Origin: a virus
Lineage: Duplodnaviria; Heunggongvirae; Uroviricota; Caudoviricetes
Virus record (IMG/VR): IMGVR_UViG_648276668_000010
Length of the DNA stretch: 10,074 bases
Strand: one strand, 5' to 3'
The notes beneath the pieces are model-generated. The model saw only the letters and a list, made by a program, of their open reading frames with translations, was not told where the DNA came from and searched no databases. Shown here one piece after another: positions 1 through 6,600 of this stretch. The stretch's first letter is position 1; each line of letters opens with the position of its first letter. Both the position numbers and the translations under genes were made by a program.

Positions 1-2
1 AT

Positions 3-371
3 GGTGACGCCATTCAGGCAACAAAAGCGGCTGCGGCAATCCGTAAAATCACGATTGAAGCAAACCAGACCGCTGATTTTGAAGATAATGACTTCAGCGG
101 CAAACGCTCCCTGATGGAATCTGTCGAAGCGAAGACCAAAGACATTATGCCAGTGGCATTTGAATTTAAATGCGTTCCGTTTGAAGGTCTGAAAGAACGT
201 CCGTTTAAATTACGCCTCAGCATTATCACTGGCGATCGTCCTGTACTGGTTCTGCGCATTATTCAGCTGGAAGCGGTGCAGGAAGATATGGCTAACGAAT
301 TTCGTGATCTGCTTGTTGAGAAATTCAAAGACAGCAAAGTAGAAACCTTTATTGGTACTTTCACCGCCTGA
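3..371 (+). CDS. C-terminal part of a phage protein (5' end outside window); by synteny upstream of yfdR possibly YfdQ-like
   Basis: Frame 3 is open from position 3 to the TGA at 369-371 and gives a protein-like translation (…[43 protein letters not shown]…FIGTFTA). A strong hairpin follows. Identity inferred from position only. Confidence 0.55.
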
Positions 372-383
372 TTTCATTACTGC

Positions 384-405
384 AAATGCCCCTGCGGGGG
401 CATTT
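384..405 (+). terminator. Probable intrinsic (possibly bidirectional) terminator hairpin after the upstream phage gene
   Basis: Perfect inverted repeat AAATGCCCC-tgcg-GGGGCATTT: 9 bp stem, 4 nt loop, GC-rich core flanked by A/T runs, 13 nt after the stop at 371. Confidence 0.5.
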
Positions 406-498
406 ATGGAAACGTAATTAACTCAATAATCACCGGATGGTGAGGGCTTCCTTTTACCCAAACTCAGCGCGGTGCAGCGCATATACGTGGAGAACAAA

Positions 499-1035
499 AT
501 GTCATTTATTAAAACTTTTTCCGGGAAGCATTTTTATTATGACAAGATAAATAAAGACGACATCGTGATTAACGATATCGCGGTTTCCCTTTCAAATATC
601 TGTCGCTTTGCCGGTCATCTTTCTCACTTCTACAGTGTCGCCCAACATGCGGTGCTTTGCAGCCAGCTGGTGCCGCAGGAATTTGCTTTTGAAGCGTTAA
701 TGCATGATGCAACAGAAGCGTATTGCCAGGACATCCCCGCACCACTGAAACGCCTTCTTCCTGACTATAAACGGATGGAAGAAAAAATAGATGCAGTAAT
801 CCGTGAGAAATACGGGTTACCTCCTGTTATGAGCACGCCAGTGAAATATGCCGATCTCATTATGCTGGCAACCGAACGCCGTGATCTCGGGCTTGATGAT
901 GGCTCTTTATGGCCTGTACTGGAAGGTATCCCGGCAACAGAGATGTTCAAAGTTATTCCACTGGCACCGGGCCATGCCTACGGGATGTTTATGGAACGCT
1001 TCAACGAGTTATCGGAATTACGCAAATGTGCATAA
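499..1035 (+). CDS. yfdR: HD-domain phosphohydrolase, YfdR-type 5'-deoxynucleotidase (178 aa)
   Basis: ATG at 499 preceded by GGAG (cgtGGAGaacaaaATG). Translation MSFIKTFSGKHFYYD…HD…ELRKCA has a His/Asp-rich HD-type core (…HLSHFY…MHDATEAY…). Length 178 aa matches YfdR as I recall it. The ORF-track start at 472 is 9 codons upstream and lacks an RBS. Confidence 0.8.
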   Translation: MSFIKTFSGKHFYYDKINKDDIVINDIAVSLSNICRFAGHLSHFYSVAQHAVLCSQLVPQEFAFEALMHDATEAYCQDIPAPLKRLLPDYKRMEEKIDAVIREKYGLPPVMSTPVKYADLIMLATERRDLGLDDGSLWPVLEGIPATEMFKVIPLAPGHAYGMFMERFNELSELRKCA

Positions 1036-1904
1036 CTCATGTAGTTAGTTTTTCTGGCGGGAGAACATCCGCATATCTTGTTCACCTGATGGAAGAACAA
1101 AGAAAGGCTGGCAATAACGTCTGCTACATCTTTATGGATACCGGTTGCGAACATCCGCTGACATACCGCTTTATCCGGGAGGTTGTAAAGTTCTGGGACA
1201 TACCACTAACTGTGTTACAAGTCGATATAAATCCTGAGCTTGGGCAGCCAAATGGTTATACAGAATGGGAGCCAAAGGATATTCAGACACGAATGCCGGT
1301 GCTTAAACCGTTTATGGACATGGTTAAAAAGTACGGCACGCCATACATCGGCGGCGCGTTCTGTACTGACAGGCTAAAACTCATCCCTTTCACGAAATAC
1401 TGCGATAACCATTTCGGGCGAGGTAATTACATCACATGGCTGGGTATTCGTGCAGACGAACCCCGTAGGCTGAAACCGAAATCGGGCGTCCGGTATCTTG
1501 CCGAGCTGTCAGATTTTGATAAGTCGGATGTTATCCGGTGGTGGCGAAAACAACCTTTTGATTTGCAAATCCCGGAGCATCTCGGGAACTGTGTTTTCTG
1601 CATCAAAAAGTCAACGCAAAAGCTGGAGCTTGCATGTAAAGACGAACCAGGTCTGATGCGAGTTTTTAATGAGCTGGTTACAGGCAAACACGTCAGGGAT
1701 GGTCATCGCAGAACAGGTAAAGACATTATGTACCGTGGTCACCTGACGCTTGACGGAATTGCCAGAATGTCTGCCAACAGCGACTACAGAAATTTGTATC
1801 AGGCGATGGTACAGGCCAGGCGATTCGATACCGGTTCGTGTTCAGAGTCATGTGAAATCTGGGGTGATCAATTGGAATTGGAATTCGAAGAGGTAGGGGT
1901 ATGA
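1026..1904 (+). CDS. Phage PAPS-reductase-like PP-loop ATP pyrophosphatase family protein (lambda NinC-like), 292 aa
   Basis: N-terminal PP-loop motif VVSFSGGRTS in MCITHVVSFSGGRTSAYLV…, typical of the PAPS reductase / N-type ATP-PPase fold. Start ATG at 1026 overlaps the yfdR stop by 10 nt. The longer ORF from 909 would overlap yfdR by 127 nt and is less likely. Confidence 0.7.
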   Translation: MCITHVVSFSGGRTSAYLVHLMEEQRKAGNNVCYIFMDTGCEHPLTYRFIREVVKFWDIPLTVLQVDINPELGQPNGYTEWEPKDIQTRMPVLKPFMDMVKKYGTPYIGGAFCTDRLKLIPFTKYCDNHFGRGNYITWLGIRADEPRRLKPKSGVRYLAELSDFDKSDVIRWWRKQPFDLQIPEHLGNCVFCIKKSTQKLELACKDEPGLMRVFNELVTGKHVRDGHRRTGKDIMYRGHLTLDGIARMSANSDYRNLYQAMVQARRFDTGSCSESCEIWGDQLELEFEEVGV

Positions 1905-2245
1905 CAACCGAAATTAACTACCATGCACTGCTTGAGCGCGCACGGAATAAAGTGCAGAGCATTGATTTCGCCTTAACACAGAGTGCATTCGCTGAGATTC
2001 GCGCTGAGCTTGAAAATGATTTAGAACTGGCACGGATTGCACTGGCATCTCTGGAAGTTGAGCCAGATGAACGCGCAGCCTATGAATTATTTATGGAAAA
2101 GCGTTTCGGTAAAACAGTCGATCGTCGGAGAGCAAAAAACGGCGATAACGAATACATGGCATGGGATATGACTCTCGGTTGGATCGTCTGGCAGCAACGA
2201 GCTGGTATCCGTTTTTCAACAATGTCACAGCAAGAGGTGAAATAA
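1901..2245 (+). CDS. Hypothetical small phage protein (114 aa)
   Basis: ATG at 1901 overlaps the upstream TGA (ATGA coupling) and is preceded by GAGGTAGGGG. Acidic/helical-looking translation with no motif I recognise. Confidence 0.6.
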   Translation: MTTEINYHALLERARNKVQSIDFALTQSAFAEIRAELENDLELARIALASLEVEPDERAAYELFMEKRFGKTVDRRRAKNGDNEYMAWDMTLGWIVWQQRAGIRFSTMSQQEVK

Positions 2246-2337
2246 TGGAGCCATACAGCCTCACACTCGATGAGGCCTGTCAGTTTCTTAAAATATCCTG
2301 ATCTACCATCGCCGTCATAGAGCGTATTTTTATTACC

Positions 2338-2353
2338 TGATTTGCAGGTTCGA
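2338..2353 (+). other. tRNA T-arm-like fragment (TTGCAGGTTCGATTCC) just upstream of torI
   Basis: Contains the conserved tRNA T-loop motif GGTTCGATTCC with a 5' T-stem half GCAGG, but the 3' T-stem half is not complementary (CCCTA), so it is not a functional tRNA. Confidence 0.35.
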
Positions 2354-2376
2354 TTCCCTATTCGGAGATAGCACTC

Positions 2377-2577
2377 ATGCAACACGAACTACAGCCTGAT
2401 TCACTGGTTGATTTGAAATTCATCATGGCTGATACTGGCTTTGGTAAAACCTTCATCTATGACCGGATTAAGTCAGGCGACCTGCCAAAAGCCAAAGTTA
2501 TCCACGGGCGAGCAAGATGGTTATATCGTGACCATTGTGAATTCAAAAATAAGCTCTTAAGCCGCGCCAATGGGTAA
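2377..2577 (+). CDS. torI: TorI: KplE1 prophage excisionase / recombination directionality factor and Tor operon inhibitor (AlpA-like HTH, 66 aa)
   Basis: 66-aa product MQHELQPDSLVDLKFIMADTGFGKTFIYDRIKSGDLPKAKVIHGRARWLYRDHCEFKNKLLSRANG, which I recognise as TorI. GGAG lies 10-13 nt upstream of the ATG. Sits directly beside the att core, as expected for an RDF. Confidence 0.85.
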   Translation: MQHELQPDSLVDLKFIMADTGFGKTFIYDRIKSGDLPKAKVIHGRARWLYRDHCEFKNKLLSRANG

Positions 2578-2649
2578 AATAGCGGGTAAAATATTTCTCA
2601 CATCTAAAAAACACCATTCCAATCAATCCCCTGCTGCTTCAAGTAGATG

Positions 2650-2665
2650 TCTGCAGGGGACACCA
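2650..2665 (+). repeat. Prophage attR core: duplicated 3' end of tRNA-Arg (argW), TCTGCAGGGGACACCA
   Basis: The sequence ends in the acceptor-stem/discriminator/CCA signature of a tRNA 3' end without the rest of the tRNA, 73 nt after torI. This matches the argW 3' end as I recall it; the exact core length needs alignment. Confidence 0.6.
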
Positions 2666-3024
2666 TTTATCATCCCCCTCGCAATAACCCACTTACAATC
2701 AGTGAGTTATCTTAAAATCCTTAGTATAGTCAACCAGTACTTCGATATGTGAACGCAAATCATCATGCATTCGTGAACTTAACTGGAAACCTCCCCCATT
2801 CGATGTCAAAATGACTACCCCAATAAGTTGCCAATAATCAGGCTAATCAATACGGGTCAGTCTTGCTGGTCAGTGATCATAAAAATGTCACCTCATATTA
2901 GACTCAGCAAATAATTGTGTCGATTAAACATACTACCTTCAGCATAACCGTTCCTGAAAAATTATTATATTCAGTAATCTGAATAAATTACTGGCCTGCT
3001 ATTTTTCTTAGCAACCATATTTAG

Positions 3025-3068
3025 CAGCAAGCCAGCAAATCTGAATGATTACAGATGCTGGCCTGCTG
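3025..3068. repeat. 12-bp inverted repeat (CAGCAAGCCAGC … GCTGGCCTGCTG, one G-U wobble, 20-nt loop) in the 3' flank of the Skp-like gene; the motif CTGGCCTGCT also occurs as a direct copy at 2991-3000
   Basis: Read directly from the sequence. Lies 35-78 nt beyond the Skp-like stop on the minus strand. Could be a terminator-like or mRNA-stabilising stem-loop, or protein-binding sites. Confidence 0.45.
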
Positions 3069-3102
3069 AATCTCCCTTCTGGAAATCGTCAGAATCTAGT
3101 GA

Positions 3103-3555
3103 TTACTTACTTTGTTCTGGTTTCTCTTCATTCTTATTGTGCACTTCCACTTTGGGTAATTTATTAAAAACCAGATTTTCTTTTTCAACCAGAGTCATGA
3201 CTTCTTTGGTGATTTCAGCTGACTCGTTATGCGCAAGCACAACACCTGAAGACAATACGGCAATATTTTTAGGATTGTCTTTTCTCCATGTGCCTATGGC
3301 ATTATCTATCGCACGGGATAACACCATTTTTGCGCTATTTTCCTCAATAACATATTGTCGTTCCAGTTTTTGTCTGGCATCAAGAAGCAGCGCCTCTTTA
3401 TTCGCGTTATCTGCGAATGTTTTTTGCGCATCCTCATATCCTTTTTCAAGAATACTCTTAACCTCATTCAGATGCTTTTTGGCCATGTCTCCGGCGGTAG
3501 ACTGATTATAAATAGCATCGATATTAACAACTGCAATTTCTTTTGACTTTTTCAT
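3103..3555 (-). CDS. Skp/OmpH-family periplasmic chaperone-like protein (150 aa) with no in-frame signal peptide
   Basis: Translation aligns by eye to mature E. coli Skp at both ends: KEIAVVNIDAIYNQ vs DKIAIVNMGSLFQQ, and IAVLSSGVVLAHNESAEITKEVMTLVEK vs [28 protein letters not shown]. The encoded protein starts at MKKSKE with no hydrophobic leader, and a stop lies 16 codons upstream in frame. Markedly AT-rich compared with the adjacent autotransporter. Confidence 0.7.
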   Translation of the reverse strand: MKKSKEIAVVNIDAIYNQSTAGDMAKKHLNEVKSILEKGYEDAQKTFADNANKEALLLDARQKLERQYVIEENSAKMVLSRAIDNAIGTWRKDNPKNIAVLSSGVVLAHNESAEITKEVMTLVEKENLVFNKLPKVEVHNKNEEKPEQSK

Positions 3556-3620
3556 ATAAAAACACCAGTAAGTACAATCAGCAACAGCAGCACTACTGCA
3601 TTAACAACAGAAAATTTCAT
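3552..3620 (-). CDS. 22-codon hydrophobic mini-ORF (MKFSVVNAVVLLLLIVLTGVFI), signal-peptide-like, overlapping the Skp-like start as ATGA
   Basis: Minus-strand ATG at 3620-3618 and TGA at 3554-3552, whose TGA shares two bases with the Skp-like ATG (3555-3553). Has a basic N-terminus followed by a 13-residue hydrophobic core. No strong RBS. May be the displaced signal peptide of the Skp-like gene or an independent small membrane peptide. Confidence 0.35.
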   Translation of the reverse strand: MKFSVVNAVVLLLLIVLTGVFI

Positions 3621-3647
3621 TACAGAACTCATTATGACAACCCTGAG

Positions 3648-3672
3648 GTGGCAGGAGGTCCCCTCCTGCCAC
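3648..3672. promoter_or_regulatory. GC-rich perfect stem-loop (GTGGCAGGAGG-tcc-CCTCCTGCCAC) between the autotransporter stop and the mini-ORF/Skp-like genes
   Basis: 11-bp perfect inverted repeat with a 3-nt loop, 8 nt after the autotransporter stop codon (3680-3682). No U-tract follows on either strand, so it is not a canonical intrinsic terminator; more likely an attenuator or RNA-stability element. Confidence 0.5.
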
Positions 3673-3679
3673 TGTGTGA

Positions 3680-6600
3680 TTAGAATATATATTTAATACC
3701 CAGCATTGCCTGGGCATCACTGTACCCTTTATCGCCAGCCTGAACACCAACATTGCCCCAGACACTCAGGTTATCTGACAATTTACCCTGAACACCCGTT
3801 TTGACTTCAGCAATATTTGTAGCTCCGTCCTGACTGAGTGCCGTATTATCCATTTTGACACCCCAGCTCCGTGTATTATGGATCCAGTTAACTTCCACAA
3901 ATGGCTCAAACTGATGCGCCTTATTATCATCAGACGCACTCTTACCTTTCAGGTAAGTTCTGACGCCCAGACGACTCTGGATATTACCGTCTCCGCTGAG
4001 CTGAACTTTCGTGCCATTCTTCTCCGTATGCTCACTGGCTCTTACATTCATCCACGTGATCTGGGACTGCGGCTGAATATACCAGTCATAGTGGCTACCC
4101 TGGCTACCGATAAATTCGCCGGCTTTAAAGGTATAACCCGCTTCCACTGAACCGGTAAATCCACGGGATTTCCAGGACTCCGCAGCCAGTTTTTCACCAT
4201 TAACGGTATTATTAAACCATCCGTACTGGATCCAGGTATCGACATAAGCCCCGTTGTCATTACCGTCATTCTGCTGCCACGTTCCGTATAAACCGGTGCT
4301 GTATCCATTGATCGCACCTTTAGATTTATATCCCGAAAGCGAGGATGTCGTGGAACTCTTCTCATTTCCATAACCGGCCATAATCCCCAGTTGCAGACGG
4401 TCCTGACCGTCAGTCCATTGCGCAATGCTGCCACCCAGTTGCACAACATAACGGTTACTTTGCGTATTCAGCTGTGAACTGCTGTCCTTCCAGCGATTAT
4501 GACCGCCGATATGACGCATCCACATACTTGTTGCTTTCTTCTCACCAGTAAACACATCGGTATAGTAAGTTTCCCCCTCACGATCGTGCATTCTGATGTT
4601 GAACAGCGTGTTGGCTGCCGCTATGTTCGCAATATAAGAGCCCGCTTCCGGACGATAGACCTTCTGTACAGGTTTATCCGGCGTGGGGTGTGGCTGTGGC
4701 TGCGGTTGTGGCTGCGGCTGCGGTTGTGGTTCTGGCGGCAATTCAGAACGCAGATACCAGTTACCGTCAGTACCACCCGCATTACCTTTATGCAGGAAAT
4801 ATTCCCATGCCCCTGCCACCGCACGGTTCTGCAGTCTGAAGTTACCGTCAGAATGCCCACCGACATGCACAATCTCAATGCCGTCAGCGGTCTGAGCCCC
4901 CTGGCCCCGGACATTATTCACCACCACGCCGGTATCACCGGAGGTGTTACCCGTGACAATCAGTTTGTCAGTGGCAGAAGTATCATCCCCCAGCACGGTA
5001 TTGATAATTAACGTACCGCCACCGGTGTAATCGCCATTTACGGTCAGGGTATTTCCTGTCTTACCACCGGCCAGACGAATGACGCCGGTATTGGTCAGTG
5101 AACCAACCGTAAAATTGCTCGCCTCTGCCGTTTCATAACCTGAGAGAGCATTCAGTGATGCCAGTGTTCCCTGGTTATTAACCTGACCCGAAACGGTCCC
5201 CAGCCCACTCAGTGTGCCGCCATTAAGAACATGAATGTTTTTGGATCCTGACAACGTCGCACCAGCGGCACGGGTGACTGAATCATCACCGACAATCAGA
5301 ACGCCATTCTCAACCGTGGTATCACCGGTATAAGTCAGCTCATGATTAATAATCAGATTACCCGCCCCCTGTTTCACCAGAGCGCCGGAGCCAGTAATAT
5401 CATTCTTCAGTAACCAGTTTCCACTGGCGGTAAGCCAGGTGACACCATCACTGTCAATCAGCCCGGTGCCCAGGTGTTTTTCATCTGAAGCCCGCAGAGC
5501 AGCATCTTTCTGCACACGGAATTCACCGCTGAAATTACTGTTATCCCCGGAAAGCGTCAGATCAGTGGTGTTCAATATACCCACTGAACCTTCTCCGGAA
5601 AGCGATTTACTCAGGTTACTGCTGACTCCGCTACCGTCGGCGATATCAATCGCCAGGCGATCACTAAGGCTTTCAAAGCTGATGGAACCCTGGCTTCCCA
5701 GCCCCTGTGCGCCGTTCATTTCAACCAGCGCCCCCTGGGTAAGGCTGGCATTACCGGTAAACCCGATATTGGTGCCATGTACCGTCAGGTCGCTGCCCGT
5801 GACAGCCAGCGTTCCCTCACCGGACAGCACGTTGTTTTCAATGACGCCACCATTATCATCGCCCGGCTGACGCTGCGTGCCGCTGACCGTTAGCACACTA
5901 CCGCTATCAAGCTGAATGTGCGATCCCGTTTCTGTCTGCAGTACACCGACAGTCTGGCTGTATCCGTTTGTTCTGAAGACGGCATTGCTGGCGACGTTCA
6001 GATTACCTGTTGCGCCAAGAACATTGTCATTTGCCATCTGTAATGTGCCGCTGCGCACCAGCGTATCCCCGGTATAGTTATTACCGCCGTTAGACAGTGT
6101 GACAACCTGCCCCGCAGCTTCGATGGCCAGATCCCCTGCCCCCGTTAACTGTGCGCCAAGATCTGTCTGCAGTCCTTGGGCATTCGCTCTCGGTGTCAGC
6201 ACCAGCGCTTTATCACCGGTTCCCTGTAAATCCAGCGACTTCAGCCCATAGCCTATGTACAGTCCGTCACCTTTAATCCCGTCGGAGCTTCCCAGCAGCT
6301 TATAGTCATAATTTCCCTGAGCTACAACTTCACCGCCCTGAGTGACATCAAACGTCTGACTGTGAGAAATAGCCTGCCCGTTTTCATCCACCAGTTGCAG
6401 TTGCCCGCCAGTACCGGTGACGGTACCCGCTGCATTCACCAGTGTGACCAGGGTCTGCGCATCATCCTGCTCCAGCAAATTCTTACGGGTATCAACAGCC
6501 GGAATATCATTAATCACTTCATCTGGCATGGTGACCTGAATTGTGCCTTTCCCCCGAATATCCAGCGTACCTGCAGCAGAGGTTTCAATACTGTTGCTGG

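Follow-up and report, generated by a model that had tools for sequence, protein, structure and literature searches.

The window, which is the whole stretch of 10,074 nucleotides that was analysed, carries on its minus strand a 150-aa Skp-like ORF beginning directly at the mature domain (its N-terminus reads MKKSKEIAVVNIDAIY), and a small hydrophobic ORF overlaps its start in another frame. The question raised by this locus is whether the two ORFs form a genuine arrangement, in which a chaperone of a periplasmic family is made without an export signal, or whether they are the pieces of one broken gene. The first-pass annotation had described both ORFs, the overlap of the TGA of one with the ATG of the other and a run of five T at the junction, and all of these were present in the window as described (Table 1). 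The mini-ORF can also be read in a form of 22 codons with its initiating ATG at 3620 on the minus strand, and its stop shares bases with the Skp-like start codon (3553–3555) in the sequence ATATGA. The zero-frame codons at this junction are GGT GTT TTT ATA TGA. Insertion of one T into the T5 run changes the reading to ...LTGVFYMKKSKE..., which is identical to the protein encoded by other genomes.

Table 1. Coordinates of the features of the split locus and its surroundings in the window.
Feature	Position	Strand	Remarks
Whole upaE-linked Skp/OmpH-like gene	3103..3632	minus	530 nt in the window; 531 nt (176 aa) elsewhere
Skp-like ORF, 150 aa, start MKKSKEIAVVN	3103–3555	minus	3' fragment without leader; its ATG corresponds to Met27, a conserved internal residue of the full protein
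Hydrophobic mini-ORF, 26 codons, MSSVMKFSVVNAVVLLLLIVLTGVFI*	3552–3632	minus	5' fragment, N-terminal export or anchor segment; out-of-frame TGA at 3552–3554
T5 homopolymer, frameshift site	3558–3562	coding strand minus; A5 on plus	T6 in nearly all other genomes
Intergenic stem-loop GTGGCAGGAGG-GGA-CCTCCTGCCAC	3648..3672	minus	between the upaE stop and the Skp-like start
3' 6.4 kb of upaE (phase-variable autotransporter adhesin)	3680..10074	minus	from the annotation of matching genomes; gene runs off the contig end
Second homopolymer indel, run of 8 against 7	10011..10018	minus	7 in 243 of 244 complete genomes; shifts the upaE frame near codon 549

The same gene was searched in the complete genomes of E. 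coli. The locus was matched in 253 of 5,426 genomes, directly downstream of the gene annotated as "phase-variable autotransporter adhesin UpaE," and each full-length match among the matches listed was 802 nt long against the 801-nt query. T-HYM1, C4, CB6837, SMS-3-5, and Nissle have T6, and the alignment puts the lone gap of the window in the T-run; this one-base gap was the sole difference in the Skp-like gene between the window and the nearest complete genomes. When an 82-nt query containing T6 was used, it was found exactly in at least 238 of the 249 complete E. coli genomes with the locus. The T6 form is one unbroken ORF of 172/176 aa (MSSVMKFSVV…GVFYMKKSKE…) annotated as a single CDS of 519/531 nt, and the 176-aa protein from these genomes begins MSSVMKFSVVNAVVLLLLIVLTGVFYMKKSKEIAVVN. 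The names given by PGAP to the intact CDS are "OmpH family outer membrane protein," "membrane protein" or "hypothetical protein," and the intact orthologs include WP_024234612.1 (T-HYM1), WP_000100045.1, WP_001587277.1, and WP_000100043.1 (Nissle 1917). These orthologs occupy the same place after upaE with a DNA identity of 98–99.9% over 801 nt, and in T-HYM1 the mature protein sequence is identical to that of the window; they differ from the window in having T6 and a continuous ORF in place of T5 and a split one. The in-frame export signal is present in the T6 form and in the orthologs but absent from the 150-aa ORF of the window, which starts at Met27. The expectation of the first-pass annotation that one extra T would fuse the two ORFs was borne out in at least 238 of 249 complete genomes, which have T6 and an unbroken ORF, and the ortholog comparison it had proposed, looking for a precursor of about 173 aa, yielded the continuous 172/176-aa ORF. 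At the level of sequence, these comparisons showed the two overlapping ORFs to be the halves of one conserved gene that falls short by 1 nt.

How a shortage of one base could generate the whole arrangement can be laid out from the intact gene. The 176-aa protein would consist of a short N-terminus followed by a hydrophobic segment of about 20 residues leading into or across the inner membrane, a conserved Tyr-Met-Lys-Lys junction, and a Skp-type domain predicted to have a small beta body and a hairpin arm of helices. In the window the T6 lying within GTT TTT TAT (Val-Phe-Tyr) stands as T5, so that the leader reads ...V F I stop and its TGA lands on the ATG-A of the conserved Met27-Lys28, giving both the apparently "coupled" ATGA and the seemingly leaderless 150-aa ORF.

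The origin of the missing base was examined in the source of the window. Among public assemblies, precisely this 150-aa product is recorded for a single one (GCA_000176615.2, scaffold GL884220.1, E. coli TA143), and the window was found to be exactly one contig bounded by two N-gaps in this draft scaffold. E. coli TA143 is a Tasmanian-devil isolate, and its genome came from a Broad Institute project (PMC4422515). Across its 10,074 nt, the window differs from the nearest complete genomes (T-HYM1/HYM1) at three places, which are one substitution (1966) and two homopolymer indels. Relative to T-HYM1 the two indels are opposite in sign, one being the T6 to T5 deletion and the other a 7 to 8 insertion in upaE. 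The Broad drafts of E. coli, including TA143, were presumably pyrosequenced. Of 244 complete genomes searched with a longer query, A10 alone had the 8-run, and its upaE carries the annotation "frameshifted." Such a pattern, with two oppositely signed homopolymer indels and a single substitution in a draft contig bounded by gaps, is the signature of homopolymer miscalling; the draft-quality sequence differs from its relatives almost only by run lengths, as is the case in homopolymer artefacts. In this respect the window matches the class of homopolymer errors and frameshift pseudogenes seen in pyrosequencing or long-read assemblies, where 1-nt changes are confined to homopolymers of ≥6 nt, and it has no feature that sets it apart from this class. 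A homopolymer-length miscall in the gapped draft contig of TA143 is, in our assessment, the probable cause of the split, and TA143 itself probably carries the normal gene. The homopolymer sequencing error and the frameshifted pseudogene, the two mundane ones among the alternatives listed by the first-pass annotation, both gained support.

Shortened or otherwise altered runs were also found outside TA143. A census of complete genomes with a 45-nt T5 query for which T6 offers no seed detected T5 in 3 of 251 genomes, namely SC406, C10, and C11, of which C10 and C11 have a diverged allele. Both the Skp-like gene and upaE are annotated "frameshifted" in SC406, and the T5 copy of C10/C11 is additionally truncated by an IS66 element. 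SCU-124 has T8 and A4 in place of T6 and A5 with both genes annotated frameshifted, and such a change in adjoining runs is a typical base-calling pattern. SC406 and SCU-124 are the other complete assemblies in which a full-length copy is length-shifted in the T-run, and the frameshift of upaE in both was counted for an artefact. In addition, a 154-aa allele (P0176) with a replaced 5' end was present on 13 contigs.

A more distant case came from an ortholog of about 50% identity (P0029), which is split at the homologous run and has T7 where T8 is needed. Its leader MKLSIFNWLFLALLILISGFFI runs into a stop that overlaps the ATG of MKKDQS, and T8 would give ...SGFFYMKKDQS. This ortholog was found on two contigs (L010 and L011) of identical sequence from the consecutive sequencing runs SRR23684527/8, and a homolog search for more relatives of the lineage, made with the hypothetical fused L010 protein, returned only the split protein itself. 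Because breakage recurs at the T-run in L010/L011, SC406, and C10/C11, the run is a recurrent hot spot, and this suits real slippage mutations as well as miscalls. The recurring event, which is breakage at a Phe-rich homopolymer, fits both, as such a run is a hot spot for the two alike. The run being one base short also in SC406, in the diverged C10/C11 allele and in the homologous run of L010/L011 was counted against a miscall. Similarly counted was the fact that both genes of one functional pair are hit, which is compatible with a locus that is truly decaying.

A genuine strain-private -1 frameshift (T6 to T5) that inactivates the gene in TA143 is accordingly a possible explanation, to which we give tentative and minor credence. 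Under such a mutation the export segment would be uncoupled from the Skp-like domain, reinitiation at the overlapping ATG could at best give a 150-aa product confined uselessly to the cytoplasm, and, together with a real upaE frameshift, the adhesin module would be decaying in TA143. Homopolymers are real mutational hot spots. Disrupted alleles exist elsewhere, such as the T5 copy truncated by IS66 in C10/C11 and the 154-aa allele on 13 contigs, the L010/L011 gene was broken at the same site in two separate runs, and a hit in both partner genes would be expected after the loss of one of a functional pair. Set against these are the one substitution and two frameshifting homopolymer indels in 10 kb with respect to the nearest relatives, a ratio far from that of spontaneous mutation in mismatch-repair-proficient E. 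coli, the gapped draft nature of the contig, and the occurrence of the exact allele in no other assembly.

Whether the split or the T-run itself is conserved was checked in diverged orthologs. The hydrophobic N-terminus was found in frame in Escherichia sp. E2593 (76–79% identity) and Salmonella enterica subsp. diarizonae (63%), and likewise in Logan contigs at 42–43% identity. The junction codons are all in frame and without a T-run, and read GGT GTT AAT TAC in Salmonella, GGT GTT ATT TAT in Escherichia sp. E2593, and, in the two Logan contigs L014 and L015, GGT TGG TTT GTT and GGA GCA CTT TAT, respectively. As the T-run is missing from these four in-frame ortholog lineages, the tract is not a conserved signal. 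Judged from these alignments, the hydrophobic mini-ORF is no chance ORF; orthologs with as little as 42% identity have it conserved as the N-terminus of the same protein. No relatives were found in the one-genome-per-species contigs by two scans, one with the protein and one with the clade alignment; the Skp-like ortholog clade is accessory and absent from the species representatives.

These observations bear on the idea that the T-run is a functional switch, which acts either through phase variation by slipped-strand length change or through a -1 ribosomal slip on GUU UUU AUA. In the latter case, with tRNA-Phe in the P site and the rare AUA in the A site, a -1 slip would give the wild-type V-F-Y-M at a low level. 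Such a slip on the T5 allele would restore exactly the wild-type protein, length variants are found repeatedly among independent alleles (TA143, SC406, C10/C11, SCU-124, and the homologous run of L010), and the adjoining upaE is itself phase-variable, though by means of an invertible promoter (PMC6083910). Against a switch, the tract is short (5–6 nt) and invariant in length across at least 238 of 249 genomes, it is missing in the four in-frame ortholog lineages, and the variant assemblies carry other frameshift annotations too. An X XXY YYZ heptamer for tandem slippage is absent, and a tract of 5 nt falls short of the ≥8 nt of a long one. Frequent tract-length polymorphism was not found among the complete genomes, T5 being confined to 3 of 251 and T8 to one assembly with other frameshifts, and no slippery tract was conserved among the orthologs of Salmonella, Escherichia sp. 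E2593, L014, and L015. Contingency loci of surface genes in Neisseria, Haemophilus, and Campylobacter similarly have a homopolymer near the 5' end of a gene related to surface structures, with length variants that switch the frame. In contrast to those loci, the tract of the Skp-like gene is short (T6), hardly varies between strains and is missing from orthologs. If a switch did operate, a dedicated UpaE chaperone would be turned on, off or down, adding a second control beside the invertible promoter of upaE, and the breaks at one and the same codon in TA143, SC406, C10/C11, and the L010 lineage would be explained. On balance, we consider a functional switch very improbable, and the slippage-dependent expression offered by the first-pass annotation found no footing in the in-frame orthologs of Salmonella, Escherichia sp. 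E2593, and the two other lineages, from which the T-run is absent.

The overlap of the stop and start codons was examined in the clade alignment. Met27 was found to be invariant, and Tyr-Met-Lys (TAT ATG AAA) is conserved at the junction. The ATGA overlap arises because this conserved TAT ATG AAA is read after a -1 deletion, and any -1 deletion in the leader reads through to the TGA within ATG-A. The same geometry in L010 is therefore not independent evidence of design, as it is forced by the conserved Tyr-Met-Lys. Designed translational coupling was rejected for this reason, and the mini-ORF as an independent ORF with its own stop was not conserved, being separate only in frameshifted assemblies. 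A two-gene design, in which a stand-alone membrane peptide of 22–26 aa (type-I-toxin-like) would be translationally coupled to a leaderless cytoplasmic Skp-like protein, is suggested only by the geometry of a mini-ORF stop overlapping the next start in the window and in L010. It is scarcely credible given that essentially all other genomes and the diverged orthologs have the mini-ORF joined in one frame to the Skp-like domain, that an N-terminal export signal is found in nearly every family member examined, and that the ATGA overlap is a by-product of TAT ATG AAA read one base out of frame. The coupled membrane peptide envisaged at first thus lost its ground, with the T-run missing from in-frame orthologs and the ATGA overlap carrying no independent weight. 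The special two-ORF reading as a whole fell by the outcome that the first-pass annotation had itself named as fatal to it, which is a single ordinary ORF, and such an ORF exists in other genomes.

The nature of the intact protein was also addressed. The Pfam family OmpH (PF03938) matched the 150-aa ORF at 24.7 bits (E 3e-5) against a gathering score of 32.4, and scores for the protein were in the range of 24.7–26.3 bits (E 3e-5 to 9e-6), with only the N-terminal half of the profile covered. A Pfam match to DUF1993 was dismissed as sub-threshold. The NCBIfam search with the protein gave nothing meaningful, and no Skp match came from searching the PDB sequences with either the protein or a six-sequence profile. 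When hhalign was run against an approximate E. coli Skp sequence, it aligned 18 columns only, placing EIAVVNIDAIY against KIAIVNMGSLF in the first strand of the mature part. Since the comparison with solved Skp by sequence fails, the family link was made by fold. The profile of six orthologs detected 215 cluster representatives of 160–200 aa at E <= 0.001, and an alignment of 66 sequences was assembled from the 6 members of the ortholog clade and 60 distant relatives. Pfam OmpH was matched by 63 of these 66 at E <= 0.01, the best value being 4.9e-11.

The AlphaFold2 model obtained with the 66-sequence alignment had a pLDDT of 92.6 and a pTM of 0.78, and consisted of a helix (3–27), a strand (32–36), two helices (46–72 and 79–119), and a further strand (123–128). 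The small beta body with an inserted helical hairpin that defines the Skp fold was found in this model. In a Foldseek search against the PDB, ranks 1–10 were all Skp/OmpH-like with probabilities of 0.99–1.00, the next match having E ~2; they include Skp (1SG2 and 1U2M), the Caulobacter OmpH-like 4KQT, and SkpA of the type 9 translocon (8GL8). Comparison thus showed that the intact protein is Skp-like and that its family is exported. The "Skp-like" label of the first-pass annotation was weak by sequence (24.7 bits against 32.4) and was confirmed by fold through AlphaFold2 and Foldseek. The protein has the predicted fold and the export requirement in common with Skp (HlpA/OmpH; 1SG2, 1U2M), the general periplasmic holdase of E. 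coli, but the identity is 16–18%, the query-normalised TM-scores of 0.44–0.55 are moderate, and the Pfam score stays below the gathering threshold. Furthermore, skp is located in the bamA-skp-lpxD cluster, whereas the upaE-linked gene lies in an accessory island beside one particular autotransporter.

The N-terminal segment was compared across the same alignment. By inspection, nearly all of the 66 sequences have a hydrophobic export segment at the N-terminus; a lipobox-like motif was picked up by regex in 29 of 66, a few of them seemingly spurious, and most others resemble signal-peptidase-I substrates. The 215 OmpH-like representatives, of lipoprotein or signal-peptide type, share the same full-length domain of 160–200 aa, nearly all with an export signal. 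The lipobox (L-x-G/A-C), found in about half of these relatives, is absent from the Escherichia/Salmonella clade, in which L-T-G-V or F-I-G/S-V, without a Cys, takes the place of the L-x-G-C of relatives. Inspection of this clade also revealed no conserved small-x-small cleavage site, and a basic KKSK follows the hydrophobic segment. Because of these two features, an uncleaved signal anchor would be no less likely than a cleaved signal peptide, going by sequence features, and the label "Sec signal peptide" may be too specific for the segment. In contrast to Skp, the upaE-linked protein has no A-x-A site past the hydrophobic segment and may stay anchored in the membrane.

The gene neighbourhood was found to be kept in distant relatives. 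In Salmonella, the order of a tyrosine recombinase, a LuxR-type regulator, an autotransporter of ~2,630 aa, and the Skp-like gene is retained, and in L010 and L014 the Skp-like gene likewise lies behind an autotransporter or a very large autotransporter-like gene. The paper on ipuS-ipuR-upaE describes a two-gene ipuR-upaE operon and leaves the Skp-like gene unmentioned (PMC6083910). The stem of the intergenic stem-loop is retained in five diverged loci with compensatory changes in 6 of the 15 predicted pairs. Skp has a known role with autotransporters. Taken with the fold and the gene neighbourhood, this role makes a dedicated periplasmic holdase for UpaE the most likely function of the gene. 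The exported and probably membrane-tethered Skp-like holdase would escort the 2,637-aa UpaE, encoded immediately upstream, across the periplasm.

The finding on the split itself carries very little weight, amounting to a homopolymer discrepancy of one base such as annotation pipelines already flag as "frameshifted." With at least two homopolymer discrepancies in this draft contig, its other ORF oddities merit equal suspicion. The split arrangement is no biological feature worth pursuing, and the intact upaE-linked gene is a reasonable small project. This gene, uncharacterised, confidently Skp-folded and probably membrane-tethered, and positioned behind giant autotransporters of the UpaE/BigA type in Escherichia and Salmonella, is a modestly useful by-product of the analysis. 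If it encodes a client-specific chaperone, it would provide a tractable example of a periplasmic escort dedicated to a type V secretion substrate, and could account for the variable surface display of UpaE when upaE is expressed alone.

The homopolymer that splits the Skp-like gene in the window (T5 versus T6 at plus-strand 3558–3562) was found to be altered in other loci as well. In E. coli SCU-124 (locus L020, about 650–690), T8 followed by A4 takes the place of T6 and A5. The annotation of this "complete" genome marks upaE as well as the Skp-like gene as frameshifted, and the site illustrates base-calling errors at the very run that is shortened in the window. An ortholog of roughly 50% identity from an AT-rich organism (locus L010) is also split in two (2761–2829 and 2826–3257). 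The split site is the homologous Phe-Phe-Tyr run, with T7 present and T8 needed, and the ATGA overlap is the same as that of the window. Locus L011 is identical to L010. The split ortholog is present in two consecutive sequencing runs, and no relatives of this lineage were found in the homolog search.

The window also carries a second homopolymer discrepancy. The upaE gene on the minus strand contains a run of eight at 10011–10018, which is seven in the nearest genomes and in 243 of 244 complete genomes, and the longer run results in a frameshift near codon 549 of 2,637. Strain A10 is the only other strain with the 8-run among these complete genomes, and its upaE is annotated as frameshifted. 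The window (1–10074) corresponds exactly to one contig flanked by N-gaps on either side in the draft scaffold GL884220.1 of E. coli TA143 (GCA_000176615.2); the high-coordinate gap cuts upaE and the low-end gap cuts yfdQ.

The region adjoining the Skp-like gene (1–3100) is a KplE1/CPS-53-like prophage end containing yfdQ, yfdR, a PAPS-reductase-family gene and torI, and this arrangement is common to TA143, T-HYM1, 300033 and C4. Nissle, SMS-3-5 and CB6837 have a tRNA-Arg and yfdC in its place, and no tRNA was detected within the window. The sole substitution relative to the nearest complete genomes is at 1966, which is T in the window and G in T-HYM1 and 300033.

Coordinates of the Skp-like loci and of other window features
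Feature	Sequence	Coordinates	Strand	Remark
114-aa hypothetical gene	window	1901–2245		contains substitution 1966
Skp-like gene	window	3103–3632	minus	
Skp-like gene	L012 (Salmonella)	9001–9540		
Skp-like gene	L010	2761–3257		
Skp-like gene	L014	4001–4543		
Stem-loop	window	3648–3672	minus	perfect 11-bp stem between upaE stop codon and Skp-like gene start

The stem-loop lacks a T-tail and is conserved in E. coli, Escherichia sp., Salmonella and two distant loci, with compensatory changes in 6 of the 15 predicted pairs. It may have an intercistronic role in processing, stability or attenuation.

The Skp-like gene is an uncharacterised partner of UpaE/BigA-type giant autotransporters that is conserved across genera, and it is not mentioned in the paper on the ipuS-ipuR-upaE module. 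A 154-aa E. coli allele (P0176), which belongs to the cluster of the window's protein and was found on 13 short contigs, starts with MRPSLYAYKEIAVVN and has unrelated sequence in place of the export segment. Its 5′ end is probably an insertion or deletion junction, and some lineages would therefore carry a genuinely leaderless allele. In the protein family (alignment A4; P0032–P0094), about half of the distant relatives are lipoproteins with an L-x-G/A-C motif. Because the Escherichia/Salmonella clade has Val in place of the lipobox Cys, followed by Y-M-K-K, the alignment suggests that in this clade a transmembrane signal anchor has replaced the lipid anchor.
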